From Rickettsia typhi (lineage in GTDB: Bacteria; Pseudomonadota; Alphaproteobacteria; Rickettsiales; Deianiraeaceae): 37,169 nucleotides of DNA. A program made the position numbers and the translations under genes. The DNA lies in contig CAMAVG010000001.1 in assembly GCA_945861605.1 (NCBI GenBank), positions 1-37,169 on the forward strand. The letters run 5' to 3'. The notes beneath the pieces were generated by a model. The model saw only the letters and a list, made by a program, of their open reading frames with translations, did no database searches and was not told the origin of the DNA. Below, in pieces: positions 1,548 through 37,140 of this stretch. Position 1 is the first letter of the stretch. Each line of letters starts with the position of its first letter.

Positions 1548-1988
1548 TTAAAATGGGATGTCGTCTTCTATGCCGGATGGGGAATCGTGAGATTCATCGT
1601 ATCCTTGGGAGTATCCGCCTGAAGATGAGCCTTCGCCTTCTTTGCGATTATCAATGATTTCAAGCTTGTTGTTGAAGCCTTGAAGGACGATTTCGGTTGT
1701 GTATTTTTCAATGCCGTCGTTTCCTGTCCATTTTCTGGTTTGAAGAGAGCCTTCGACGAATAATTTCGTGCCTTTTTTTATGTATTTTTCAATAATGCCG
1801 ACGAGTCCGTCCGAAAAAACAACAACCCTGTGCCATTCTGTCTTTTCGCGAGCTTCGCTGGAGTTCTTGTCCTTCCATTTTTCGGATGTCGCGAGGGAGA
1901 ATGTCGCGATTTTTTTACCGTCCTGAGTTGAGCGAATTATTGGATCGCCACCAACATTTCCAAGCAATATAACCTTATTTATTGACAT
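1548..1988 (-). CDS. ssb: single-stranded DNA-binding protein
   Basis: OB-fold N-terminus (INKVILLGNVGGDP...TEWHRVVVF), a Gly/Ser-rich linker and the acidic C-terminal tip DDIPF. I prefer the ATG at 1988 over the TTG at 1997 used by the ORF track. Confidence 0.93.
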   Translation of the reverse strand: MSINKVILLGNVGGDPIIRSTQDGKKIATFSLATSEKWKDKNSSEAREKTEWHRVVVFSDGLVGIIEKYIKKGTKLFVEGSLQTRKWTGNDGIEKYTTEIVLQGFNNKLEIIDNRKEGEGSSSGGYSQGYDESHDSPSGIEDDIPF

Positions 1989-13602: not shown

Positions 13603-16600
13603 TTACGATGAAAATGTTGTTCTGCGATAGCTTGTGTACTTGTTGATTTGTGAGAGATCGTTGGTGATTTCACAGGCTTCGTCTGTTTTTTTGATTTTGC
13701 TGGAAATGTATAATTTCATGACTTCCTTCAATCCTTTGTTGATGTCAAGGGCGGGAATGGCAAATTTGGCGATTATCTCAATTGTGGATTTGTTTTGTTC
13801 GCCAATTGTGAGGTTTCCGTAGCATACGCCGGCGGAATATGCGGTTTTGATGGTGCAGTCTTCGATTGCGAATGTTTTGTCGTTGCCGTTGAGGGAGAAA
13901 ATGAAGTTTGCTTTGGTTTTTGTGTCCTGTTCGAATGCGATTTTGAGGTAGTCGGTATCAAGTGCGGAAAGGTTTTTGTGGGCTTTTAAAAGATGTTGGG
14001 AGATGAAATCAAGGTTTAATTTTGAAAAATATGCTTCCTGAACGACGAATTTGGTTGTAAGTTTGAGTGTATTGAGGAATTCGGTGTATGTTGTTCCGCT
14101 GAATGAGACTGAGCCGCCGCCGTAAATCGCACCGCCGATGTCGGTTTGAAATGGGAGGATTGTTTTGAATTCCTCGATTGGGGCGTTGATTATCGTTGTT
14201 TGGAGGTTGAAAACTGGGATGCTGCGGCGGAGGTCGATTGTGCCGGAAAGCTTGCCTGAAAGGGGCTTTTCTGCGTTTGTGACGATTGAAGAAAATTGTG
14301 TTTCGGGGATTGTAAGAACCCCTTGCTTGAGGATGCCGAGAAGTTCGATTTTTTCGAATGGTTTGCCGAGGATCTGCGATTTTATGAGGGTGAAGTCGAT
14401 GTTTCCGTCAATTTTTTCGAAAGATGGGTATGATATGGTGTTTTTGTCGAATATGTTGCGAATGATGTTGTAGAATTTTTGCATGCTTTCAACATTTTGG
14501 ACGATTGTTTTGGAGTGAATGGTTGGTATGTTTTGTTGGATGTTGATAATCGTGGAGTTGGTGAGGGTGAAATCGGTAGTGTTGATATCAACGCTGTAGG
14601 TGATGGTGTCTTTTTGTGTGTCTTTTGTGATTGTGCCTTGGGTGATGGTGGTATCTTTGAATTTGGAGTTGATAATATTGAGGACTTTGCCGGTGTTTTG
14701 TGCGTTTTCGTTTATGACGCTCTGGAAGATTGTCATGCCTTGTGGTGTGGATATTCCGTCGATTTTGAGGTTGTTGAGGTCGGTGTTTGATATCGTGATG
14801 TTGCGAAATGATGATGGTGTGGTGTTTTCGGAGAAATGCTCCGTGAATTGTGTGGAACCTTGGAGGGAGAGGGTGTCTTGAATTTCGATTGAGACAGTGT
14901 TGATGGTTGTGGAGGGGGCTTTGTGAACGATTGAAAGGTTGACTGTGCTGGTTTCGTCTGTGATTGTTTTTGATATTTCGAAATCTGTGGCAAATTGTAC
15001 GATTTTGCTTACGATGTTTTTGTAATTGCCGTTGCCGGAGATCGAAATGTTGAGAATGCTCGTTGGATTGGATTGAATGTTGTTGATTGCACCGCTTGCT
15101 TCGATTTGAAGGTTTTCGCCGGCTTGAAGTTGGAGGGTGTGGAGGTCGATATTTTCTTTTGTGATGGTGAGGTTGGATTCGAGGTTTTTGAATAATGGTT
15201 CGTTTTGTGATGAAATATTTTTTGAGACGATTTTGATTTCAAGGGGCTTGGCTGGGTTTATGATGGAGAAAATGTTGAGGGCATGTGATTTGTTGATATT
15301 TTTTTTATTTTCCTCGGGTTTTTTGGTTTTTGTAATTGGGGGTGGTGTTTTGGTTTCGCCTATGATTTTTGATATAACTTCCGTTATGGAGATTGTTTCG
15401 AAGTTGACGGTTGCTTGGTAGGAATTTGGGGTTGTTTTGAGGGTGAAGAGTCCGATTGAATTGAGTGCGTTGATTTTCCCCTTGGAGACGCTGAATTCGT
15501 GATTGAGTGATGAGTGTTCGAAATCGAGTTGAATGGTGAGTTGTGGGAGGTTTTTGAGATATTGGGTGATTTTTGGTTTTCCGCCAAATATTGTGGTGAA
15601 TTCTTCGAGGTCGCTTATGATGAGTTCGATGTTGCCTTTGGTTTGGAAGTCTTTGGAGGCGGTGCCAAATGTTTTTTGTGTGCCGTTGATTGTGAAGTTG
15701 AATGATGGGGATTTGATTGTGGCTTCCAGTAAATGGTTGCTTTTGGTGTGGGAGTATTTGATTGTGATTGGTTTGGAGTTGGTGAGAATAGTCCCTGTGA
15801 TTGTGGATTTCTGTGGTGTATTGTGGATTTCGAGATGATCGATGGAGATGTTATCGATGATTTTGCCTTGTAGGTCTTCGACCGTGAGGGTGGTATCGGT
15901 GATTGTGATGTTTTCGAGCATTGGGGAGAACTCTTGATTGATGAGTTCGGTGAGTGTGTTTAGAATGTTGATATCATTTGTGCTTGTGATTTTGATGGTG
16001 GAATCGGATATTGTGAATGTTGCGTTTTTAAGATTGTGTTGGATGTTTGAGAACAACTTGGAGGAAAGTGATGTCGTTCCGTTGATTTCCATTGTGGTGG
16101 AATCGTTGAGTGCGATTTGCATTTGGGATTTGTGGAATATGAGTTTCTCGCGAATGGTGTATTGCATTTGTACGCCCTGTGTTTTTAGGATTTTGATTGT
16201 GCCGTTTTGAAATGTCGGAATGGATTTTGTGGTTATTCCAACTTGGCTTGCATAACCCCAAAGGGCTGAAATGAGGGCGAGTATTGCGATGAGAATGATT
16301 TTGGTTTTGTGGAAATCGATGTGATTTCCAAAAGTTTTTTTATTTTTTTTGATTGGTTTGTCAATTTTTGGTTTTTTGTGAGATATTTCCGGTTGTTCTT
16401 TGGGGCGAATCATTTGGGCGATTTTGCTACTTGTTGGTGTTTCTATGGGTGTTTCTTCTTCAGGCTCCTCTTCAAGGTTGAAGTCGTAGTCTTCGTCCGC
16501 AGCTTCCTCTTCGTTTTGTGGTTCCTCTTCAAGGTTGAAATCGTAGTCTGCATCATCAGATTCCTCTTCGTTTTGTGGTTCATCTTCAAGGTTGAAGTCG

Positions 16601-17208
16601 TAGTCTTCGTCTGCAACTTCGTCGTTTTCCTCATTTTGTTGATTAAACGATGTGGCGGATTGCATTTTGATTTCATCCATGCCGTCTAATTCGTCGAGTT
16701 CCTCCGCAAGGGTTTGTCCTGTTTCCGCTTCGGGGAGTGAATCGAAATCGTAGTCGTCTTCTGCAATTGCTTCCTCGCTTTCTTGCGTTTCCGCTTCGGG
16801 GAGTGAATCGAAATCGTAGTCGTCTTCTGTCACAATATTTTCCTCGCTTTCTTCAGTTTCCGCTTCGGGGAGTGAATCGAAATCGTAGTCTTCCTCTGTC
16901 ACAATGTTTTCCTCGTTTTCTTGCGTTTCCGCTTCGGGGAGTGAATCGAAATCGTAGTCTTCAACAGGTTCTTCTTCTTGGGTATCCTCGTCTTCGCCGT
17001 GGTGGAGGTGGAAGTCGTCAGTATCTGCGCCTTCGAGGTGTTCGGGATCGATTGGTTGATCGAAGTGAATGTCTAATTCAAAATCTTCTTCTGTATTTGG
17101 AGCAGGATTGGGCGCGATTCCCTTGCGGTTCGTGGAATTGTTGCTCACATTAAAAGAAAATTTTTTTTTTATTTTAGAAATCTTGTCTTTGGTTTTTGGA
17201 AAAATCAA
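13603..17208 (-). CDS. AsmA/TamB-like envelope protein with an acidic repeat-containing N-terminal extension
   Basis: 1201-aa ORF. About 297 aa of acidic repeats are followed by a single TM helix (KIILIAILALISALWGYA), about 880 aa of T/N/S/I-rich beta-prone sequence, and a C-terminal block (GGAIYGGGSVSFSGTTYTEFLNTLK...) resembling the AsmA C-terminal domain. The start is uncertain because the TTG at 17208 has no nearby in-frame ATG. Confidence 0.55.
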   Translation of the reverse strand: MIFPKTKDKISKIKKKFSFNVSNNSTNRKGIAPNPAPNTEEDFELDIHFDQPIDPEHLEGADTDDFHLHHGEDEDTQEEEPVEDYDFDSLPEAETQENEENIVTEEDYDFDSLPEAETEESEENIVTEDDYDFDSLPEAETQESEEAIAEDDYDFDSLPEAETGQTLAEELDELDGMDEIKMQSATSFNQQNEENDEVADEDYDFNLEDEPQNEEESDDADYDFNLEEEPQNEEEAADEDYDFNLEEEPEEETPIETPTSSKIAQMIRPKEQPEISHKKPKIDKPIKKNKKTFGNHIDFHKTKIILIAILALISALWGYASQVGITTKSIPTFQNGTIKILKTQGVQMQYTIREKLIFHKSQMQIALNDSTTMEINGTTSLSSKLFSNIQHNLKNATFTISDSTIKITSTNDINILNTLTELINQEFSPMLENITITDTTLTVEDLQGKIIDNISIDHLEIHNTPQKSTITGTILTNSKPITIKYSHTKSNHLLEATIKSPSFNFTINGTQKTFGTASKDFQTKGNIELIISDLEEFTTIFGGKPKITQYLKNLPQLTIQLDFEHSSLNHEFSVSKGKINALNSIGLFTLKTTPNSYQATVNFETISITEVISKIIGETKTPPPITKTKKPEENKKNINKSHALNIFSIINPAKPLEIKIVSKNISSQNEPLFKNLESNLTITKENIDLHTLQLQAGENLQIEASGAINNIQSNPTSILNISISGNGNYKNIVSKIVQFATDFEISKTITDETSTVNLSIVHKAPSTTINTVSIEIQDTLSLQGSTQFTEHFSENTTPSSFRNITISNTDLNNLKIDGISTPQGMTIFQSVINENAQNTGKVLNIINSKFKDTTITQGTITKDTQKDTITYSVDINTTDFTLTNSTIINIQQNIPTIHSKTIVQNVESMQKFYNIIRNIFDKNTISYPSFEKIDGNIDFTLIKSQILGKPFEKIELLGILKQGVLTIPETQFSSIVTNAEKPLSGKLSGTIDLRRSIPVFNLQTTIINAPIEEFKTILPFQTDIGGAIYGGGSVSFSGTTYTEFLNTLKLTTKFVVQEAYFSKLNLDFISQHLLKAHKNLSALDTDYLKIAFEQDTKTKANFIFSLNGNDKTFAIEDCTIKTAYSAGVCYGNLTIGEQNKSTIEIIAKFAIPALDINKGLKEVMKLYISSKIKKTDEACEITNDLSQINKYTSYRRTTFSS
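16468..16605 (-). repeat. in-frame tandem repeat, 3 copies, period 57 bp, encoding DYDFNLE(E/D)EPQNEEE
   Basis: The core (c/a)tcttcaaggttga(a/g)(a/g)tcgtagtc recurs at 16468, 16525 and 16582. Confidence 0.95.
16721..16959 (-). repeat. in-frame tandem repeat, 4 copies, period 66-69 bp, encoding DYDFDSLPEAET plus an acidic linker
   Basis: The 35-nt core gtttccgcttcggggagtgaatcgaaatcgtagtc recurs at 16721, 16787, 16856 and 16925. Confidence 0.95.
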
Positions 17209-21207: not shown

Positions 21208-22356
21208 TTATAGATTAAACCATTGTTTTAAATTGTCGTGAAGATTGGTCTCCTCCCAAAGGAAAAAATTGCTTAGTGGAAGGGGTTCTCTGCCGAAGTG
21301 TCCAAAACTTGCGGTAGGTTTGTAGATGGGATTGTTCATTTTCAGGCGATGGCGTATTCCTTTTGGGGTGAGATCGATGTTTTTTGTGATAAATTCGATG
21401 AGATCCGAGTTTTTGACTTGGGAGGAATTGTCGGTTTTGATGTAAATTGAAACGGGTTGTGCAACGCCGATTGCATACGAAAGTTGGATTGTGCAGTGTT
21501 GTGCAAGTTTGGCGTGAACGATATTTTTGGCGAGGTATCGTGCGATATAGGCGGCGGATCGATCGACTTTTGTCGGGTCTTTTCCGGAAAATGCTCCGCC
21601 ACCGTGTGGGGCAGAACCGCCGTAGGTATCAACGATGATTTTTCTGCCGGTCAGACCTGTGTCGGAGACTGGTCCGCCAATGATGAAAGTGCCAGCCGGA
21701 TTGATGAAAGTTTTGTGTTTTGATGGCATGTTTGGCAGGGTTTTTTCAAGAACGCTTGTGACTTTTTGGCGGACTTCATCAAGGGAGATTTCCTTCGCGT
21801 GTTGAGTTGAAACCACAACGGATTCGACCGCAGTTGGGAGGCCGTTTTTGTATTCGAATGTTACTTGGGATTTTGCGTCAGGACCAAGACCCTCAATTCC
21901 AGCAAGGTTTTGAAGAATTCTGTGGGAATAAAAAATTGGCGCAGGCATAAGTTGTGGGGTTTCCTCGCAAGCAAAACCGAACATAATTCCTTGGTCGCCG
22001 GCACCTTCTTCTTTTTGATCGTTTTCATCAACACCGCTTGCAATTTCAGAAGATTGCGTGTGAATGTGGTTGTAAATTTTCACTTTATCATGTGCAAAAC
22101 CTTCGTAGTTGTGTCCAATTTCTTTGAGAGTCGCCCTTACGATTTGCTCGACATCGTTATTTGAAATTTCGTGATTTTTCAATCTAATTTCACCGCCAAC
22201 GACGACAGTATCCGTTGTTGCAAAGCATTCGAATGCGCATCGTGAGTCATTTTCTTTGGAGAGGCAGAAATCAAGGAGGGAATCGGAGAGGATATCGCAG
22301 GTTTTATCAGGATGCCCAGGAGCAACCGATTCACTGGTAAATAGTGATAATGACAT
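21208..22356 (-). CDS. metK: S-adenosylmethionine synthase
   Basis: SESVAPGHPDKTCD, GAGDQGIMFGFA and GGGAFSGKDPTKVDRSAAY signatures. Confidence 0.97.
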   Translation of the reverse strand: MSLSLFTSESVAPGHPDKTCDILSDSLLDFCLSKENDSRCAFECFATTDTVVVGGEIRLKNHEISNNDVEQIVRATLKEIGHNYEGFAHDKVKIYNHIHTQSSEIASGVDENDQKEEGAGDQGIMFGFACEETPQLMPAPIFYSHRILQNLAGIEGLGPDAKSQVTFEYKNGLPTAVESVVVSTQHAKEISLDEVRQKVTSVLEKTLPNMPSKHKTFINPAGTFIIGGPVSDTGLTGRKIIVDTYGGSAPHGGGAFSGKDPTKVDRSAAYIARYLAKNIVHAKLAQHCTIQLSYAIGVAQPVSIYIKTDNSSQVKNSDLIEFITKNIDLTPKGIRHRLKMNNPIYKPTASFGHFGREPLPLSNFFLWEETNLHDNLKQWFNL

Positions 22357-22885: not shown

Positions 22886-23583
22886 TTGGTGTTAAAAAAT
22901 TCATCTTGAAATGGTAGCATATCATAGGTCTCTTTATGTTTATACTTCTTCAAATCTTCCTGTTTTCTTCTAACTTCTTTCACTTCATCGGCTTTTTGCT
23001 TCAACCATGTATATTTTTCACTGTGTGTATCTTTGTATTTTTCATATAACTTTTCAATTCGCTTGAAATTTGTTAATCGTGTTAAGAATTCAATATATAA
23101 ATATCCATCACCATCTTTCTTATATTCACCTTGAATCATCTTCACAATTTTCTCTTCACACAGTGGATCAATAATAACTCGTGGGTAAAGAGCCTTCGAT
23201 TTTTCCAAATTATAAGCACGGTTAATAGCAGGACCAATAAATTGCGAACTCTTGTGGAATACCTTTCCATAAGTGATTGCCCCACGGGAGAGGAGGTTTT
23301 TCATTAACAATGCAGTTTGTATGCTAATTACCTTATCTACTATAACCTCAATATACTCACTACTTATGACAAATGTATCGGAAAATTGTGCAACTTCATT
23401 AAAATCTATATCATCAAATAACAAATATTGATTTGGATCTTGCTTTTTTTGCAAAATCTTATCAAATAAAGACAAAACCTTCCTCGCAAACTCCTCGGAT
23501 TTTTTTTCATCATTAACATAAGCCTCAAACCCCAGAATATCCAAGAACAGAACATATTTTTCGGTGTAAATACTACTCATCAT
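22882..23583 (-). CDS. minimal class-III nucleotidyl-cyclase-like (palm/CHD fold) protein with a K/E-rich helical tail
   Basis: 233 aa. VLFLDILGFE (D15), FSDTFVIS (D69), RGAITYG and GPAINRAYNLE line up with CHD landmarks ilFaDIvGFT, GDaymavf, R.GihtG and GdtVNlAsRlE. The gene is markedly AT-rich compared with its neighbours. It overlaps prfB by 11 nt and the lipoprotein gene by 4 nt. Confidence 0.55.
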   Translation of the reverse strand: MMSSIYTEKYVLFLDILGFEAYVNDEKKSEEFARKVLSLFDKILQKKQDPNQYLLFDDIDFNEVAQFSDTFVISSEYIEVIVDKVISIQTALLMKNLLSRGAITYGKVFHKSSQFIGPAINRAYNLEKSKALYPRVIIDPLCEEKIVKMIQGEYKKDGDGYLYIEFLTRLTNFKRIEKLYEKYKDTHSEKYTWLKQKADEVKEVRRKQEDLKKYKHKETYDMLPFQDEFFNTK

Positions 23584-24644
23584 TCCCCTTCTTTGAAAAA
23601 GTTATCATTTTGAAGATGAAATCGTCAATTCCGCCGTCTAAAACCTTTTGCGTGTTCATTTCTTCGTGTGAAGTTCGCGTATCTTTCACTAACTTATAAG
23701 GGTGTAAAACATAGTTTCGAATTTGATTTCCCCACGAAACATCATCTTTTTCGACGGAATCTCGCTTTGCTTGGCGTTTGCGTTCTTCAAGTTCGTAAAG
23801 TTTGGACATCAACATTTTCATGGCGGTTTCTCGGTTTTGAAGTTGAGACCTTTGGTTTTGACAAGCCGCGACAACTCCAGTTGGAATATGCGTCATTCGA
23901 ACGGCGGAATCTGTGACATTCACATGTTGCCCGCCTGCACCGGATGAACGGTAGGTATCGGTTCGAATATCGCTTGGGTTAATGTTAATCGTGATTGTTT
24001 CGTCAACCAGTGGAGTCACAAGCACCGAAGCAAACGAGGTTTGGCGTTTGTTTTGAGCATTAAACGGCGAAACTCTTACCAAGCGATGCACACCCGTTTC
24101 GTATTTCAACATTCCGTAGGCGTTCTCGCCTTCAATTGTAATAATCGATTGCTTAATTCCAGCTTCTTCCCCGTGAAGACGATTCACGATTTCCATTTTG
24201 AAATTCTTTTCCTCCGCCCAGCGAATGTACATTCTCTCCAACATTTCTGCCCAATCTTGGCTTTCGGTGCCGCCTGCTCCTGAATTTATTTCCAAAACAA
24301 CGCCAAGTTTATCGGCTTCGTCCGAAAACATTTCCGCCATTTCCATAAATTTCATTTTCTCGATGAGCTTTGGAAGTTCTTTGAAAATTTCGTTTCGAAT
24401 TTCGTCGTCTGCTATTTCGATTATTTCAGCGTAGCCTTCTATCGTGGAAGAAACTAATTCAAATTCAGCAATGTAGCGTTCAAGCGATGCCTTTTCCTTC
24501 AAAACCTTGATTTCATAATTTCCATCAAGAACTTGGTCTTCAAGAACTTTCAGACGCGATTTTTTGGAATCCAAGTTAAAGAAATTCCCTCAACTTTTGG
24601 AGGGAATTAAGGGTTTGATTCAATTCAATTGGAAGATCTTGCAT
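23573..24644 (-). CDS. prfB: peptide chain release factor 2, with a programmed +1 frameshift
   Basis: SPF tripeptide (RVSPFNAQ) and GGQ (SGAGGQHVNVTDSAVR). ORF0 runs from the ATG at 24644, encodes MQDLPIELNQTLNSLQKLREFL and stops at TAA (24578..24576). After the +1 shift, NLDSKKSRLKVLED... continues to 23573. The junction parallels E. coli LRGYL/DYDAKKERLEEV. Confidence 0.9.
24575..24590 (-). promoter_or_regulatory. RF2 +1 frameshift cassette (SD-like AGGGA, then CTT TAA C)
   Basis: The minus strand reads AGGGAATTT CTT TAA C. It has the same architecture as the E. coli cassette AGGGGGTAT CTT TGA C, but with a UAA stop. Confidence 0.8.
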
Positions 24645-24709: not shown

Positions 24710-25003
24710 TTACTCAACGGCGATGGAAATCTCAATTCTGTCGCCAGCTGAAACTTCGCATTTCTCGCGGATTTCCTTTTTTATGGGAATGATATAGGTC
24801 TCATCCTTGCGAAACATTGATGTCTTCCACGATTTTCCGCCAATTGTTGCGGTGATTTTCACAGAACCCCAGCCCAAATGCACGCAAGCTTTCTTGATTA
24901 CATCCGCGTAATATTTTGGAACGGAAATAAAATGCCACGAAGAGGTTTTTATTCCATCTTTTGGAACCCAAAGCCACATTTCTCCCGTGAATCTGTAAAT
25001 CAT
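24710..25003 (-). CDS. DUF1905-family small protein
   Basis: 97 aa. WHFISVP....A..IK......GWGSVKITATIGGKSWKTSMFRKDETYIIPIKKEIREKCEVSAGDRIEISI fits the DUF1905 (YdeI N-terminal-like) pattern. Its start overlaps the gpmI stop by 4 nt. Confidence 0.6.
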   Translation of the reverse strand: MIYRFTGEMWLWVPKDGIKTSSWHFISVPKYYADVIKKACVHLGWGSVKITATIGGKSWKTSMFRKDETYIIPIKKEIREKCEVSAGDRIEISIAVE

Positions 25004-26448
25004 AACAATCCTTCAACCATTTCGCTCGGTTTTGGAATTTCCATTAAATCAAGAATCGTCCCAGCAATGTTTGCAAGGCTTCCCGCCCTTAATTTATGCG
25101 GATTTTTCGAAACTAGAATCAGGGGAACGACTCCAGTCGTATGCTGAGTGTGAATTTCTCCGGTTTTGATGTCAACCATTTCCTCCAAATTGCCGTGGTC
25201 TGCGGTGATTAGAAGCTCGTATCCATTCTCCAAAACGCATTTTTCCAAATTCCCAAGGAAGATATCAATGTGCTGAGCCGCCTGTTTTGAAGCTTCAAAA
25301 TTCCCACTGTGACCAACCATATCCCCGTTTGCAATGTTGATTACGATGAAATCCTGCGAATTTTCTTCGATTTTTTGAAAAAGGCGTTCTTGGAGTTCGT
25401 AAATTGACATTTCGGGTTGAAGATCGTATGTTTTCACATTGGGCGATTGAATCAAAATCCGTTCTTCAAACTGCCCTTGAGCTTCCTTCCCGCCGTTGAA
25501 AAAAAATGTCACATGGGCATATTTTTCCGTTTCGGCAATGTGTAAATGTTTTTTGCCATGGAGTTCAAGAACATCAACAAGCGTGTTTTGAATGTTGTTT
25601 TGCGAAAACAGAACCGTCGTTTTGCTTGCGATATCCTTGGAGTACTGCGTCATGCAAATGATTTCTGAAAATGTGGAGGAATCAGTTCTCAAATCAATTG
25701 CCATTTGGGTTAATTGACGCATGCGGTCTGCTCTGAAGTTTGCAAAAAAGATGGAATCGCCGGAATTCACGCCGTTATAATTCCCAATTATTGCCGGCTC
25801 GAAGAATTCATCGGAAATTTTCTGCGAATGGAAAAACTCCGTTGCCTTTTGGATATCCCCAAACTTCATTGTGGAATCCCCCATTAAGGCGGAGAAATAT
25901 TTTTGAGTCCTCTCCAGTTTGTTATCCCTATCCATCGCGAAAAAACGCCCTGAAATCGTTGCAATGTTCAAGCCTTGAAACCGTTCAACCGTGGAGGCAA
26001 ATTCGTTTGGGGGAACATCTCGCCCATCGGTAATTATATGCAAAAAAACCGTTTTACCAAGGTTTTCAAGGGATTTGTATGTGTGAAGAATGTGCTGCAA
26101 ACTTGAATGAACGCCACCTGTGGAACATAGCCCGACTAAGTGGACTCTGCTCGTGATTGAAGTTTTCGCAAGTTTTGCATCAAATTCGCCATTTTGGATT
26201 GCAAGATTTATTCGCGGAAGATCCTGATAAATAACCCTTCCGCCACCAATTGTCATGTGTCCAACTTCGGAATTTCCCATTTGTCCTTCAGGCAGACCAA
26301 CCGCAAGCCCCGATGTTTCAAGTTCCGTGCTTGGATACTGCCCAAGCATTCGTTGGAAATTTGGCGTTTTACTTTGAAATATTGCGTTGTATTTGTAGGT
26401 TTTATCGCCAATGCCAAAGCCGTCTAAAATGCACAAAATCGTTTTCAT
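25000..26448 (-). CDS. gpmI: 2,3-bisphosphoglycerate-independent phosphoglycerate mutase
   Basis: MKTILCILDGFGIG start typical of iPGM, plus NSEVGHMTIGGGR, ADHGN and HT..VP motifs. The 47-codon upstream extension in the ORF track has no homology-like features, so I prefer the ATG at 26448. Confidence 0.92.
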   Translation of the reverse strand: MKTILCILDGFGIGDKTYKYNAIFQSKTPNFQRMLGQYPSTELETSGLAVGLPEGQMGNSEVGHMTIGGGRVIYQDLPRINLAIQNGEFDAKLAKTSITSRVHLVGLCSTGGVHSSLQHILHTYKSLENLGKTVFLHIITDGRDVPPNEFASTVERFQGLNIATISGRFFAMDRDNKLERTQKYFSALMGDSTMKFGDIQKATEFFHSQKISDEFFEPAIIGNYNGVNSGDSIFFANFRADRMRQLTQMAIDLRTDSSTFSEIICMTQYSKDIASKTTVLFSQNNIQNTLVDVLELHGKKHLHIAETEKYAHVTFFFNGGKEAQGQFEERILIQSPNVKTYDLQPEMSIYELQERLFQKIEENSQDFIVINIANGDMVGHSGNFEASKQAAQHIDIFLGNLEKCVLENGYELLITADHGNLEEMVDIKTGEIHTQHTTGVVPLILVSKNPHKLRAGSLANIAGTILDLMEIPKPSEMVEGLL

Positions 26449-26524
26449 TTCCCAAAAATAAATTTTCAATTGAAGTGTAGTCCATAAGTTTGGAAAAATC
26501 AAGGAAATCGCAATTTTAAAATTC

Positions 26525-26553
26525 TTGACATCGATAATTTCTTGCAAGAAATT
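26525..26553 (+). promoter_or_regulatory. TTGACA -35-like box followed by a perfect 18-bp palindrome (candidate operator) upstream of the luxI-like gene
   Basis: TTGACA lies at 26525..26530. AATTTCTTGCAAGAAATT at 26536..26553 is its own reverse complement and ends 27 nt upstream of the ATG at 26581. Confidence 0.4.
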
Positions 26554-26580
26554 TTGTTTGTAACTAACTAATAAATCCAT

Positions 26581-27216
26581 ATGTCGCAATACAAAATTCT
26601 AACATTTTCATTGCTTGATTCACACAAACACGGGAATATTTTAGAAAGACTTTTAAAATTCCGATACCAAGGCTTCGTTGTTGAGGAAAAATACGATATT
26701 CCAACATATAACGACACAGAATTTGACCAATACGACAACCCATTCGCCAAATATATCACCATTATGCAAGGCGATGAAATCGTCGCATGTTCAAGAATTA
26801 ACAGGACGGATATTCCTTATATGGCAAAAGATTGCTGGAGCCACCTAATTCCAAGCAATTTCCTTCCAAGCGATTCAAACTTTTATGAATGGACAAGGCA
26901 GTATGTTAGTTCCAAACTTATAATGGTTGAGAGGATGAAGATGGCTCGAATAATTTCCGCAGTAACATATTTCACCCTTATGGAATCAAATGCTGGCGGG
27001 GTTTGTTATGTTACGCATGCTTCGTTGCTTCATACGGCGGAAAAGCTTGGAATGAATCCACACTCTGTTGCAAGACTTAATCTTCCAGACTTTCCCAATC
27101 TTCATTTTGTGCATGTGAATGTGAATAATGACGACGCACAAAATGTTGCGAAGAACATCGTAGAAATGACAGGATTTGATATTATTCGGCATTTTCCGTC
27201 TGTGGATCTGGGTTGA
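26581..27216 (+). CDS. LuxI-family autoinducer (acyl-homoserine-lactone) synthase-like acyltransferase
   Basis: 211 aa. FRYQGFVVE..., TEFDQYD (the E-x-D-x-x-D acidic cluster), IVACSRINRTDIPYM (cf. G..RL.PT..P.ML) and FYEWTRQYV (cf. WE.SRF.V) reproduce the conserved N-terminal LuxI signature. Confidence 0.7.
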   Translation: MSQYKILTFSLLDSHKHGNILERLLKFRYQGFVVEEKYDIPTYNDTEFDQYDNPFAKYITIMQGDEIVACSRINRTDIPYMAKDCWSHLIPSNFLPSDSNFYEWTRQYVSSKLIMVERMKMARIISAVTYFTLMESNAGGVCYVTHASLLHTAEKLGMNPHSVARLNLPDFPNLHFVHVNVNNDDAQNVAKNIVEMTGFDIIRHFPSVDLG

Positions 27217-28213
27217 TTTTAATTGGGTTTTTCAGGAATTTTACTTCGGAGACGAACCTTATGCCACCTGCGCCGCGTTTAAGTTGAACGATGATATCCA
27301 CAACTTGCGTGATATAACTTCGCACTTCGTCCGGTTCCATTCCAAGACCAGCCTGCATAACCATCAACTTAAGTTGCTCGACTGCCATGGTTGGGGAATC
27401 GGCATGGAGGGTGGAAATTGAGCCGGGGTGTCCTGTGTTGATTGCTCGAAGGAATGAAAAGGCTTCTTTACCGCGAATTTCCCCCACGATTATTCTGTCT
27501 GGTCGTAGACGAAGACAGGCTTCGATGAGATCCTGCGTTGAAACATCACTTCGCCCTTGTCCGCCTTTTGAAGAGACCAAATGAAGCTTATTTGGGTGCA
27601 GATTCAACACGACTTCTCTTGCGTCCTCTACGGTTATAAGCCTTTCTTCTCTTGGAATTTCTTGAAGTAGGGCGTTTGTGAATGTTGTTTTACCAGTGGA
27701 TGTTCCTCCGCTGATAATCAGGTTTTTTTTGAACCGAACGCAACCGCGAAGGAAATCTTTTATGCGGTTTTGTTCAAGGAGGGCTTGAAGAATGTAGTCG
27801 TTTCTATCTTCTTGTTTGGATATCGCCGATTTGGTGAATGCTCCCATTTTTTCGTAATCTTCAAGGGTGTAGCTCGTCGTTGATGGTTTTCTGATTGAAA
27901 ATGCAACGGTTCCTTTTGGGCAAACGGGCGGAAGGACGACCTGAACACGACATCCGTTTGGAAGAGTTGCCGAAAGAAGTGGCTTTTCTTCGCTGACGAT
28001 TTGATCCGTTGATTGAGCAATAAGCTTTGCAAGACCATACAGGTGTTTGTATGTAAAAACGGGGAGTGAAACGGAATACATTTTGCCAAATTTTTCAACC
28101 CAGCCTTTTTCAGGTTCATTGATGGAAATCTCCGCAACGCCTTCTTGTGCAAGAATTTCCTCCAACGGTTGAAGATATGTGTTCAAAACCGTGAAATTGC
28201 TGATAGAATTCAT
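27182..28213 (-). CDS. virB11: type IV secretion ATPase VirB11/TrbB family
   Basis: 343 aa with a VirB11-like N-terminus (LQPLEEILAQEGVAEISINEPEKGWVEKFG), Walker A GGTSTGKTT, an Asp box/Walker B (RPDRIIVGEIRG) and a His box (NTGHPGSISTLHA). Confidence 0.85.
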   Translation of the reverse strand: MNSISNFTVLNTYLQPLEEILAQEGVAEISINEPEKGWVEKFGKMYSVSLPVFTYKHLYGLAKLIAQSTDQIVSEEKPLLSATLPNGCRVQVVLPPVCPKGTVAFSIRKPSTTSYTLEDYEKMGAFTKSAISKQEDRNDYILQALLEQNRIKDFLRGCVRFKKNLIISGGTSTGKTTFTNALLQEIPREERLITVEDAREVVLNLHPNKLHLVSSKGGQGRSDVSTQDLIEACLRLRPDRIIVGEIRGKEAFSFLRAINTGHPGSISTLHADSPTMAVEQLKLMVMQAGLGMEPDEVRSYITQVVDIIVQLKRGAGGIRFVSEVKFLKNPIKINPDPQTENAE

Positions 28214-28338: not shown

Positions 28339-29526
28339 ATGTTCAAGGAAAACTTCAGCGGAAAATTTGGAAAAAGTGAATTTGGCGGGCAATATATTCC
28401 CGAACTCCTCATGCCACTTGTTAAGGAACTTGAGGAATCCTACAATTTTCACAGAAAGACTTCCGAATTTTGGGCAGAATTTTCTTATTATCAAAAGCAT
28501 TATACCGGTCGCCCTTCACCACTTTATTTCGCAGAAAGGACGACTCAACACTTTGGCACGGCAAAGGTTTATTTCAAACGCGACGAACTCAACCACACGG
28601 GTTCGCACAAAATTAACAATTGCATCGGGCAAGTTCTTTTAGCGATGAAAATGGGAAAAAAACATATAATCGCCGAAACTGGAGCAGGGCAACACGGCGT
28701 TGCAACCGCGAGTGTTTGTGCGAAATTTGGTCTTAAATGCACAATTTTTATGGGAGCAAAGGATGTCGCACGCCAAGAAGTCAATGTTTTCAAAATGAAA
28801 CTTCTCGGGGCTGAAGTCCACGCTGTTGAATCGGGATCGAGGGGACTCAAAGACGCAATGAACGATGCCATGCGTTTCTGGGCAACGAACGCCGAAACCT
28901 GTTACTACCTCATCGGAACTGCTGCGGGACCACACCCCTATCCAACAATGGTGAAGGAATTTCAATCTGTCATTGGAACTGAAGCACGCACGCAAATTCT
29001 TGAAACGGAAGGAAGACTTCCAACGCACATAATGGCGGCAGTTGGCGGAGGAAGCAACGCCATCGGGCTTTTTAGCGGTTTTTTAGGCGATGATGTAAAA
29101 ATTATTGGAATTGAAGCGGGAGGCAAGGGCATTGAAACAAATGAAACTGCGGCGACTCTCAACCTTGGAAAAATTGGCGTTCTTCACGGAAACAAAACAT
29201 ACATTATGCAAAACGACGAGGGGCAAATCCAAGAAACATACTCAATTTCCGCAGGGCTGGATTACCCCGGCATTGGTCCCGAACATTCATTTCTAAAGGA
29301 TTCCAAACGGGTGGAATACCACCCAATTAACGATGACGAAGCCATGGAAGCTCTGCGTCTTACTTGCAAACTTGAAGGAATAATTCCCGCAATCGAACCA
29401 AGCCACGCATTGGGATTCCTCTACAAAATATTACCGAATTTAACCAAAACCGATGTTGTAATCGTGAATTTGTGCGGAAGAGGAGACAAGGACATCAACA
29501 CCGCAATGAAATGGTTTGGAATCTAG
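28339..29526 (+). CDS. trpB: tryptophan synthase beta chain (TrpB1 type)
   Basis: FGGQYIPE, the PLP-lysine motif [20 protein letters not shown] and VGGGSNAIG. 395 aa. Confidence 0.95.
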
Positions 29527-34803: not shown

Positions 34804-37140
34804 TTGTCAATCTTTTTTTTGAAGTTTTTATTTTTCCTTGCATTTTTCACCATTAGCAATGTTTCTTTTGCGGATATCCCACCGATCACCGCCATTGAAA
34901 GCGAGGCAAAAATTGAAGTCATTGGTAATAAAAGTATTGAAGCAAATACAATCAAGCTTTATTCTGACCTCACAGCAAATTCAGATTCAACCAAGGTTTT
35001 TTCCGATGCCACCCTTTCGAATGCAATAAAAAAAATTTACAAAACCGGCTTTTTCAGCGATGTCAAAATCACACGGAAGGAGGGCGGAATCACAATTTCC
35101 GTTATTGAGACCCCCGTAATAAAAAAAATCCAATTCAACGGCAGAAAAGCAATTGGCAAGGATAAAATCCTCGAGGAAATCTCCACAAAAGAAAAAAGAT
35201 TCTTCTCCAAAAACGATTTACTAAACGATACCAAACGCCTCACAATGATTTACCAAAAAATGGGATATCTCAATGTCAAAATCAAACCCATGGTTGAATT
35301 CCTTGAAGACGGCACGCGTGTTATTGTAATTTTTGACATTCAAGAAGGCAAAAAAGCACAAATCGAAAAAATCTCCATTGAGGGAAACGAAAAATTTAGC
35401 GATTCCCAGCTCAAGGAAATCCTCCACATTCGCCCACGAAGCATATTCAAACTGAACCTTGGCGCATCATTTGATAACGAATCCGTTCAAAACGAACAAG
35501 AGGCTCTCAAAAGATTCTACCTAACCAAAGGTTACCCGCAATTTCAAAATATCCATGTTTTAAGCACATATTATAATAATAAAAATTTATTCGCCATTCA
35601 ATACTTCATCAATGAAGGAGAGAAATTCCACTTCGGGAAGCACAAAATTGAAAATTTCGTCGAAGACCTTGATATAAGCCACTTCAAAGAAGACGAAATC
35701 CTCAACAAGGAGGGCGAAGTTTTCAACATTGAGAAAATCGAAAAGACCATCGGGAACTTACAGCAATATCTTCAAAAAAACGGATTTATTTTCGCCCAAG
35801 TCGAACACAAAGACGAACCAACCCCAGAAAAAACCATTGATATCACCTACATTTTAAAGAATTCCCGCAGAATCTATCTTCACAAAATCACCATAATTGG
35901 CAACAACAAAACCTCCGACCAAGTAATCCGCAGGGAAATCCTTGTAAAAGAGGGCGATGTCTACGACATTTCCAAAGTGCAACGGTCAATGCAACGAATT
36001 CGCAATCTCCAATATTTCGACGATGTCCAGATCGAAGAAAAACTCATCGATGGCACGCAGGACAGAATGGCGGTAACAATCACCGTCAAGGAGCGTTCAA
36101 CCGCCAGCATCAACGCTTCAATTGGTGGCGACCAATACAACGGGGTCTCAGGAAATGTCTCGGTTAATGAATCCAATTTCCTTGGCGAAGGCTATAATGC
36201 GGGAATTTCACTCGATAAAAGCATGTACGGAGAAAACTACAGCCTTTCCTTTTCCGAACCTTACTTCAAAGGCAGGGATATCCTTTTTGGAACACAGGTT
36301 TCCTATTCCAAATACGGCAACCCAAACTTCGTCCCATACCAATCCAACACATACTCCACAAGCTTCTTCATGGCATATTCCATCACGCAATATCTTCGCC
36401 ACAACATAAGCTATCGCTACCAAAATTCCGTCATTGAACAGCTTTCAAACCTTTACAGTCCCTACATAATCGCACAACTTGGAAGTTTCCAAACCTCGGC
36501 AATTGGTCACACACTATCATACGATAAACGCGACAACAACTTCATTCCATCGGGGGGGTACTCCTTCATTTTAAAGCAAGAAATCGCAGGATTAGGCGGA
36601 AACATGAAGTATATTTCCAGTGAAATCCGCGGTGATTATTACAAAAAACTCTTCAATTTTGAGGAACTCGTCTTTGGCATAAAAGGCAGATTCGCCACAA
36701 TTCAAGGCATCGGCGGTTCTGCTGTCAATGTTCAGAATCTTTATTCCCTTGGTGGCGGTTTTGGAATGAGAGGCTTCAACTATCGGGGTGTTGGTCCAAG
36801 GTATCAATACTCTTCAGGACAATACGACTCCTATTCCTACGGCGGGCAGAATTTAGGATTAGTCTCAACCGAAATTCGTTTTCCAAACGGGCTATCGAGG
36901 GATCTTGGCATTACAACATACCTCTTCACCGATTTTGGAACCCTTTATGGAATCGACGCAAGCAAAATTATCGGAGGAAAAATGTACGACGAATCTTCCA
37001 TAAGAATCGCAAGTGGCGTCGGTGTTTCGTGGAGGTCTCCCATGGGACCAATCGGCTTTGCATTTGGAAAAATAATAAAGTCTCAAGAATATGACACACC
37101 ACTTTCGTTCCTTGTAACATTCGGCGGACAAATGCAGTAA
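34804..37140 (+). CDS. bamA: outer-membrane protein assembly factor BamA (Omp85)
   Basis: 778 aa with a signal peptide ending SFA, repeated POTRA-like units (I..I.i.GN......i) and a C-terminal beta-barrel with alternating aromatic pattern and RGF/GG motifs (GGGFGMRGFNYRGVGP). The start is a TTG at 34804 and is uncertain. Confidence 0.9.
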   Translation: MSIFFLKFLFFLAFFTISNVSFADIPPITAIESEAKIEVIGNKSIEANTIKLYSDLTANSDSTKVFSDATLSNAIKKIYKTGFFSDVKITRKEGGITISVIETPVIKKIQFNGRKAIGKDKILEEISTKEKRFFSKNDLLNDTKRLTMIYQKMGYLNVKIKPMVEFLEDGTRVIVIFDIQEGKKAQIEKISIEGNEKFSDSQLKEILHIRPRSIFKLNLGASFDNESVQNEQEALKRFYLTKGYPQFQNIHVLSTYYNNKNLFAIQYFINEGEKFHFGKHKIENFVEDLDISHFKEDEILNKEGEVFNIEKIEKTIGNLQQYLQKNGFIFAQVEHKDEPTPEKTIDITYILKNSRRIYLHKITIIGNNKTSDQVIRREILVKEGDVYDISKVQRSMQRIRNLQYFDDVQIEEKLIDGTQDRMAVTITVKERSTASINASIGGDQYNGVSGNVSVNESNFLGEGYNAGISLDKSMYGENYSLSFSEPYFKGRDILFGTQVSYSKYGNPNFVPYQSNTYSTSFFMAYSITQYLRHNISYRYQNSVIEQLSNLYSPYIIAQLGSFQTSAIGHTLSYDKRDNNFIPSGGYSFILKQEIAGLGGNMKYISSEIRGDYYKKLFNFEELVFGIKGRFATIQGIGGSAVNVQNLYSLGGGFGMRGFNYRGVGPRYQYSSGQYDSYSYGGQNLGLVSTEIRFPNGLSRDLGITTYLFTDFGTLYGIDASKIIGGKMYDESSIRIASGVGVSWRSPMGPIGFAFGKIIKSQEYDTPLSFLVTFGGQMQ

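Follow-up and report, generated by a model that had tools for sequence, protein, structure and literature searches.

LuxI-type synthases are the textbook quorum-sensing enzymes of free-living Proteobacteria, and include the acyl-carrier-protein (acyl-ACP)-dependent enzymes LasI, TofI and EsaI (PDB 1ro5, 3p2f, 1k4j) as well as a CoA-dependent clade to which BjaI, RpaI and MesI (PDB 5w8c, 6wn0, 6wns) and BraI belong. Genes of this type are already known from phages, always together with a LuxR: roseobacter prophages carry xre-luxR-luxI operons linked to phage-phage communication (bioRxiv 10.64898/2026.07.02.736140), and a coral phage carries raiI with bjaR1 (PMC11309003). Here we describe a luxI-like gene in a 37,169-nucleotide stretch of Rickettsiales DNA (contig CAMAVG010000001.1, the whole of which we call the window) and its homologues in tailed phages; a stand-alone synthase common to a presumably reduced Rickettsiales lineage and tailed phages is new, as are, as far as the literature we searched shows, the subfamily, its synteny, its evolutionary rate and the phage link. 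By analogy with the solved enzymes, we consider it fairly likely that the gene encodes a functional orphan synthase of the acyl-homoserine-lactone (acyl-HSL) type, belonging to a distinct, fast-evolving subfamily that phages have captured.

26581..27216, + strand: luxI-like gene, 211 aa, a divergent homologue of the acyl-homoserine-lactone-synthase family PF00765

An earlier note on this DNA, made from the letters alone, had recognised the open reading frame (ORF) as LuxI-type by its N-terminal signature, and all of the residues it named are present: R28, F32, E47-F-D49-Q-Y-D52, C70-S-R72-I-N, I78-P-Y-M and E103-W-T105-R106. The window protein scores 36.8 bits against PF00765 (Autoind_synth, gathering cut-off 24), and all 47 sequences of the family alignment (A1) lie above that cut-off (best E 2.8e-14). 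Its best PDB sequence matches are BjaI (the best single-sequence match, E 1e-8), LasI, TofI, MesI, RpaI and EsaI, and the family profile searched against PDB sequences has LasI on top (E 7e-12). Comparison of A1 with an alignment of 50 LuxI-type representatives (A3) using hhalign gave a probability of 100% and an E of 6.9e-43 over 198 columns, so that homology runs from end to end and takes in the acyl-binding C-terminal half. A3 has six columns without variation (R, E, D, D, R, R), filled in the window protein by R28, E47, D49, D52, R72 and R106, and near-invariant E, T and Y columns, filled by E103, T76 and Y58. The catalytic residues named in the earlier note hold up in a proper alignment; of the classical LuxI residues, only the tryptophan is not kept. 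R28, F32, E47, D49, D52, R72, E103, T105 and R106 align with the conserved N-terminal residues of LuxI proteins, which in LasI numbering we take to be R23, F27, E42/D44/D47, R70, E101, S103 and R104, and these residues are kept in 45/47 family members, among them every cellular copy. The threonine that replaces serine in E-W-T-R is the A3 consensus, and MesI has E-W-T-R too. When 1.8 billion representative proteins were searched exhaustively, whole-length matches came from only about ten 50%-identity clusters and all others covered the N-terminal half only, which marks the family as a subfamily of its own whose acyl-binding half has diverged. Three members (P0029, P0035 and P0034) were also seen to carry a very different central segment (…HAYEVTRVYTNSKLPVRQRSIIARSIVVATYVYALTNN…) between family-typical N- and C-terminal parts (A1 columns ~120-190), which suggests mosaic recombination.

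The AlphaFold model of the protein (predicted local distance difference test, pLDDT, 90.5; predicted template-modelling score, pTM, 0.90) shows the fold of an acyl-HSL synthase, a GNAT-like alpha/beta/alpha sandwich, and PDB fold matches 1-12 are all synthases of this kind (template-modelling score, TM, 0.64-0.79; E down to 2e-13). Nearest are RpaI, BjaI and MesI (TM 0.78-0.79, root-mean-square deviation 2.2-2.5 Å), which have the same R/F, E-x-D-x-x-D and R residues as the window protein but only ~19% identity to it. TofI, LasI and EsaI (TM 0.64-0.71) share family, fold and N-terminal catalytic residues with the window protein, which, unlike them, has Tyr or a variable residue in place of Trp and Thr for the Ser of E-x-S-R, a C-terminal half that a plain hidden Markov model (HMM) does not align, and no adjoining LuxR partner. 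Profile comparison, fold and residues together make the ORF product a real member of the LuxI family, one that lies outside all characterised subgroups. In a tree of N-terminal regions with PDB segments, which is weak on account of its few columns, the family forms a separate clade (support 100/100) on a long branch, beyond BjaI, RpaI and MesI, whose clade is split off by a 95/91 branch. We considered membership of the CoA-dependent clade and rejected it, since the tree puts the family outside even though the fold is nearest to those enzymes; the acyl donor is thus not established as CoA.

The earlier note had offered the N-acyl amino-acid synthase branch as an alternative home for the protein. 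FeeM (PDB 2g0b) and the PEP-CTERM-associated acyltransferases (TIGR03694) have the GNAT-derived superfold in common with it, but the fold comparison and domain searches place the window protein outside that branch: its TM score to FeeM is only 0.53-0.57, against 0.79 for acyl-HSL synthases, PF13444 and TIGR03694 give no match at E up to 10, and it retains the residues of the S-adenosylmethionine (SAM) site, which are absent from N-acyl amino-acid synthases and here invariant under purifying selection. That leaves the suggestion of a LuxI fold put to other chemistry, acylating an amino acid, a lipid head group or a polyamine as in the FeeM/OlsB-like branch, which we judge unlikely yet take seriously. 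The acyl-binding C-terminal half is too diverged for direct HMM matches, 28/47 family members match PF13444 weakly, the relative L055 weakly matches TIGR03694, and the classical Trp is not conserved.

The evolutionary history of the cellular copies can be read from their two flanking genes, one divergent and one convergent as the earlier note had said; domain and equivalog matches agree with both identifications.

25000..26448, - strand: gpmI, cofactor-independent phosphoglycerate mutase with Metalloenzyme and iPGM_N domains; the divergent neighbour and synteny anchor
27182..28213, - strand: virB11, type IV secretion ATPase, convergent; VirB11 equivalog NF010475 at 547.6 bits (cut-off 389)

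A word-index search recovered 48 close homologues of the luxI-like gene (43-100% identity, 47 of them at 60% or more), all metagenomic; a protein search of genome contigs with the luxI-like protein returned no relative. gpmI also stands beside the luxI-like gene in the relatives L007, L009, L041, L034 and L035. The order gpmI, luxI-like gene, virB11 is kept in L007-L009, L040 and L041, where the LuxI-like proteins are ~80%, VirB11 88-96% and GpmI 91-95% identical to those of the window, and L034 and L035 (34% GC) keep the entire block from gpmI to the rps cluster and bamA, with identities of 91% for VirB11, 88% for TrpB, 77% for GpmI and just 62.5% for the LuxI-like protein. Synonymous divergence (dS) between the window and L041 is 0.58 for the luxI-like gene and 0.68-0.80 for its neighbours, and between the window and L034 it is 1.66 and 1.2-1.7, respectively; a dS like that of the neighbours, in the same slot, indicates vertical inheritance. 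Over all pairs the ratio of non-synonymous to synonymous divergence (dN/dS) of the luxI-like gene is 0.14-0.32; at ~0.17-0.20 against 0.04-0.10 for the neighbours, the gene evolves 2-5 times faster than they do at non-synonymous sites, and its GC content at third codon positions (GC3) is 0.37 against their 0.41-0.45. The ORF is nevertheless intact in every cellular copy, at divergences up to dS >1.5. The gene is thus old in the lineage, is under purifying selection and occupies the gpmI / virB11 slot of at least two diverged relatives.

Outside this clade, no luxI-like gene was found within 6 kb of virB11 at 23 other Rickettsiales virB11 loci; gene order also differs at these loci, which are not, therefore, "empty sites". 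Distant family members (42-47% identity) are chromosomal and reside in low-GC, reduced-looking genomes. Among them, the L055/L057 relative (L055 744-1859, L057 2-1056) has its luxI-like gene beside dnaX and dnaG and facing, in convergent orientation, a pilin gene of the TrbC/VirB2 type whose 34.1 bits exceed the cut-off, and in L066 (4438-8624) a TrbC-like gene lies 2.7 kb from the luxI-like gene.

Phage-borne homologues, at 60-84% identity, occur in tailed-phage contigs of 41-92 kb and ~30% GC that come from the same lakes as the bacterial lineage. These contigs encode ThyX, YopX, ERF or RecT plus YqaJ, SSB, ribonucleotide reductase, dUTPase, thymidylate kinase, two sliding clamps, NinG, Bro-N, DNA methylases and phage lysozyme, and have PHROG matches to baseplate-wedge, tail-fibre and minor-tail proteins. 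They share two genes only with the window, the luxI-like gene and the following one.

1548..1988, - strand: ssb, the second window gene with close phage copies

Two of the phage contig types with a luxI-like gene encode an SSB that matches the window SSB at 86-88% protein identity and falls inside a continuum of SSBs that includes one from a cellular 653-kb contig at 88%. Together, the shared ssb and luxI-like gene may link these phages to a host lineage among environmental Rickettsiales; both have a GC3 intermediate between phage and host genes. Maximum-likelihood trees have the L034-type cellular copy as the first to diverge and join the phage copies to cellular copies of the window type (support 98/98 and 97/95), and dS between phage copies and L041/L007 is 0.57, far under the value for L034 against the window. 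This combination fits capture from, or allele exchange with, the window-type clade after the L034 split.

The immediate neighbours of the gene vary by phage type, being a 195-207-aa protein rich in lysine and glutamate (K/E-rich), 94-114-aa proteins without functional annotation, or YqaJ, so the luxI-like gene behaves as a stand-alone cassette. Like the roseobacter prophage and coral phage modules, these contigs place a LuxI-type gene in phages of alphaproteobacteria and point to host-phage exchange. They differ in having neither luxR nor xre beside the gene, in the changing neighbours and in a presumed host that is a Rickettsiales epibiont rather than a roseobacter; the nearest HTH_3 and Sigma70_r4 genes are ~9 kb away, and the xre-luxR-luxI arrangement is not seen in any of the phage copies. 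For one phage type ~50 kb was examined, and neither this DNA nor the remaining phage fragments showed a LuxR-type gene or an integrase. As a receptor candidate we considered the conserved protein encoded upstream of the phage gene, and rejected it, as a K/E-rich, coiled-coil-like protein that matches nothing in Pfam or PHROG.

One 65-kb phage contig (L063 5337-8657; L060 13274-13849) encodes two DnaN-like clamps, thymidylate kinase, ThyX, dUTPase, ribonucleotide reductase and a SocA_Panacea-domain protein. Neither this contig nor the phage helicase has a relative among named phages; the other phage contigs likewise lack relatives there and in IMG/VR, whose viral contigs gave no match when scanned with the alignment of the family. 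The sole match of the luxI-like family among named phages is a distant, N-terminal one in Pseudomonas phage Y5, where an unannotated record (OQ572407.1 15212-15493) matches the N-terminal LuxI region at 31.6% (E 4e-7); this may represent a LuxI-like gene in a cultured phage.

The position of the window gene, convergent with virB11 and overlapped at its 3' end by that of virB11 over 35 nt, raises the question of a tie to the type IV secretion system (T4SS), the gene being a relic or analogue of plasmid traI-trbB-trbC whose product controls or accompanies secretion. On Ti and Rhizobium plasmids the LuxI-type gene traI lies near a VirB11-family ATPase gene, as in the window, or a VirB2/TrbC-type pilin gene, as in L055/L057 (a relative ~45% identical, with its convergent pilin gene scoring 34.1 bits); the TrbC-like gene 2.7 kb off in L066 and the TraI models, which are the best NCBIfam names for the window protein, point the same way. 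Against this, the window gene is chromosomal and its convergent orientation precludes an operon, and hence co-transcription, with virB11; the ATPase is a VirB11 equivalog rather than TrbB, models of which fall far below their cut-offs; and TraI scores of 30-33 bits are far under cut-offs of 250-292. Adjacency could also be due to chance, T4SS genes being scattered and virB2 multi-copy in Rickettsiales. A TraI-TrbB relic in the strict sense was rejected on the type of the ATPase and the convergence of the genes, and the wider tie strikes us as improbable, although synthase and rvh-type T4SS may be linked functionally or historically.

Two further features of the window bear on expression and substrate supply.

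26449..26580, no strand: divergent intergenic region between gpmI and the luxI-like gene, 132 bp, with TTGACA at 26525-26530, an TGTAACTAACTAA block at 26559-26571 and a palindrome at 26536-26553
21208..22356, - strand: metK, S-adenosylmethionine synthetase; the full set of three S-AdoMet synthetase domains is present, the C-terminal one at E 3e-62

The gpmI ORF as listed (25000-26589, - strand) opens at a TTG at 26589 and overlaps the start of the luxI-like gene, which is an artefact: the conserved start is the ATG at 26448 (MKTILCILDG...), giving ~482 aa, in line with 479-481 aa in relatives. Within the intergenic region, TTGACA is conserved throughout the relatives and the TGTAACTAACTAA block in most of them, L041 varying, and a consensus scan of 26449..26580 called neither promoter nor terminator. 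The perfect 18-bp palindrome AATTTCTTGCAAGAAATT (26536-26553) was considered as a lux-box-like operator and rejected; L007, L009 and L040 have it in imperfect form and L041 and L034 lack it, and this poor conservation makes an operator role doubtful. The presence of metK means that the organism is able to make its own SAM, the presumed amino-donor substrate. Further along, trpB (28339-29526, + strand) has virB11 on one side and mnmA on the other and no trpA adjoining, an order that is the same in L034.

For the phage copies in particular, the protein might serve to consume or sequester SAM or acyl-thioesters, in counter-defence or metabolic take-over with an outcome like that of phage SAM lyases, rather than to make a signal. 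LuxI chemistry does split SAM, cleaving it to methylthioadenosine and a lactone, and in the phages the gene sits as a stand-alone cassette in the early part devoted to replication and recombination, flanked by different genes from one phage type to another and lacking a LuxR. Several phages, however, have SAM-dependent DNA methylases directly beside it, which argues against SAM depletion; lactonisation by LuxI enzymes normally requires prior acylation; and the long vertical retention of the gene in a bacterial chromosome is left unexplained. We give this possibility little credence. A decaying, horizontally acquired luxI remnant without function in the bacterium, in favour of which one may cite the raised non-synonymous rate (omega ~0.2), the slightly lower GC3 and the lack of a partner gene, is the least plausible of all, being largely refuted by selection analysis (ORFs intact in all cellular copies at dS >1.5, omega well under 1), complete catalytic residues, a conserved promoter-like upstream region and a confident structure prediction.

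The earlier note had also stated that the window encodes no LuxR-type protein. This holds for the 30/33 large non-nested ORFs that were scanned with Pfam, none of which has an Autoind_bind or GerE/LuxR domain (the other three being the 1201-aa giant ORF at 13603..17208, prfB at 23573..24574 and a 778-aa Omp85-like ORF at 34804..37140), and it is a statement about the 37-kb window, not about the genome. The scanned ORFs include the housekeeping genes tig, holB, amidase, gcvP, rpsB, dxs, psd, dnaG, engB, an amino-acid kinase, uvrC, metK, gpmI, virB11, trpB, mnmA, mdh and ribosomal protein genes, and the rest had no match. No LuxR-type gene was found in the region of the syntenic relative L034 that was examined either, so that a cognate, adjoining LuxR (Autoind_bind plus GerE helix-turn-helix) is lacking across the window, L034 and the ~50 kb of phage DNA.

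Regarding the host, sequence relationships place the window lineage in Rickettsiales. The window VirB11 matches 24 loci in species-representative genomes, one of them in a metagenome-assembled genome (MAG) of a Rickettsiales bacterium at 94% identity and the others, at 61-68%, in MAGs of Rickettsiales, Rickettsiaceae and Anaplasmataceae and in Anaplasma species; an SSB relative at 73% identity carries the NCBI name Candidatus Deianiraeaceae. DNA runs containing the window region come exclusively from freshwater, lake or estuary metagenomes. The Rickettsiales family UBA1997 is described as freshwater-restricted, with small genomes and an extracellular, epibiotic life on cryptophyte algae, and its quorum-sensing capacity was known before only from a one-line mention without analysis ("capacity for ... 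quorum signaling"; 10.1101/2023.01.31.526412), on which the supplement of the same preprint gives no detail of quorum-sensing genes. We infer that the window lineage probably belongs to UBA1997 or a close family. The earlier note had found a synthase unexpected in a streamlined intracellular bacterium; the lineage is Rickettsiales by its VirB11, and the intracellular framing is weakened, and wrong if the family assignment is right, by a probable extracellular host for which quorum signalling has been reported.

If the luxI-like gene does encode a functional acyl-HSL-type synthase, the catalysis that we infer would run as in the solved LuxI enzymes. By this analogy the protein would bind SAM through its conserved N-terminal residues, the SAM being supplied in-house by the metK of the same window; an acyl group would be moved from an acyl-thioester, either acyl-ACP or acyl-CoA, to the SAM amine; and the acylated SAM would be lactonised, releasing an N-acyl-homoserine lactone and methylthioadenosine. 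In a freshwater Rickettsiales lineage the gene appears to be a stable chromosomal resident that passes down vertically in its slot between gpmI and virB11, and tailed phages, probably phages of that lineage, would have captured it from there, two contig types also having a host-type SSB. The product might be sensed by an unlinked LuxR, an unconventional sensor, an algal partner or the phages themselves. The phages might gain by manipulating the host signal, by communicating with one another as in roseobacter prophages, or by consuming SAM or acyl-thioesters.

Several observations weigh against this interpretation. The PF00765 match is confined to residues 20-126 of the window protein (profile positions 9-116 of 183), and direct matches to characterised synthases cover only the N-terminal half, or mostly that half in the case of the best PDB sequences. 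The position of the conserved Trp of the SAM/acyl pocket (presumably W33/W34 of LasI/EsaI), a hallmark of the LuxI family, is Tyr38 in the window protein, and the column reads Y in 31 of the 47 members, C in 6, F in 5, Q in 2, N in 2 and W in a single one. The best NCBIfam names, the TraI models NF052393 and NF010408, reach just 29.9 and 32.8 bits, where 250 and 292 would be required, so that the protein is no TraI equivalog. Two phage alleles have lost otherwise invariant catalytic residues in an intact ORF, whereas no cellular copy has: P0009 (L004 10001-10624), recovered from three samples, has R106M, and P0040 (L036 1262-1903) has D49C and R72M. The cell copies could be monophyletic by the approximately unbiased (AU) test (not rejected, p 0.22), and so could the phage copies (not rejected, p 0.47); the direction and number of transfers are consequently just moderately supported. 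Expression evidence comes down to one freshwater metatranscriptome contig, 130 nt over 27069-27198, which spans the 3' end of the luxI-like gene and the virB11 overlap with 2 differences; it is adapter-flanked, may derive from either strand and could reflect DNA carry-over. Finally, neither the window nor ~50 kb of phage DNA yielded a receptor, which leaves any role in signalling putative.

That an orphan copy is conserved in a presumably reduced Rickettsiales lineage suggests that chemical signalling, whether to kin or to a eukaryotic partner, persists in the shift towards host dependence, and the diverged acyl-binding half may make a new kind of acyl-HSL. To our knowledge, little is known about the viruses of Rickettsiales beyond Wolbachia phage WO and related prophages; the phage copies, with a host-like SSB in two contigs, offer a testable handle on those of environmental Rickettsiales, and extend phage LuxI genes from the luxR-luxI modules of roseobacters to stand-alone synthases. 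More speculatively, and with clearly less confidence than we attach to the synthase itself, an extracellular algal epibiont might make an acyl-HSL-type molecule without any LuxR, its infecting tailed phages having taken both the synthase and the host SSB to make or jam that molecule, which would be read by the alga, by an unconventional receptor or by the phages. Were this epibiont-phage scenario true, environmental Rickettsiales would gain their first phage-host pair and their first auxiliary gene for a signal synthase.

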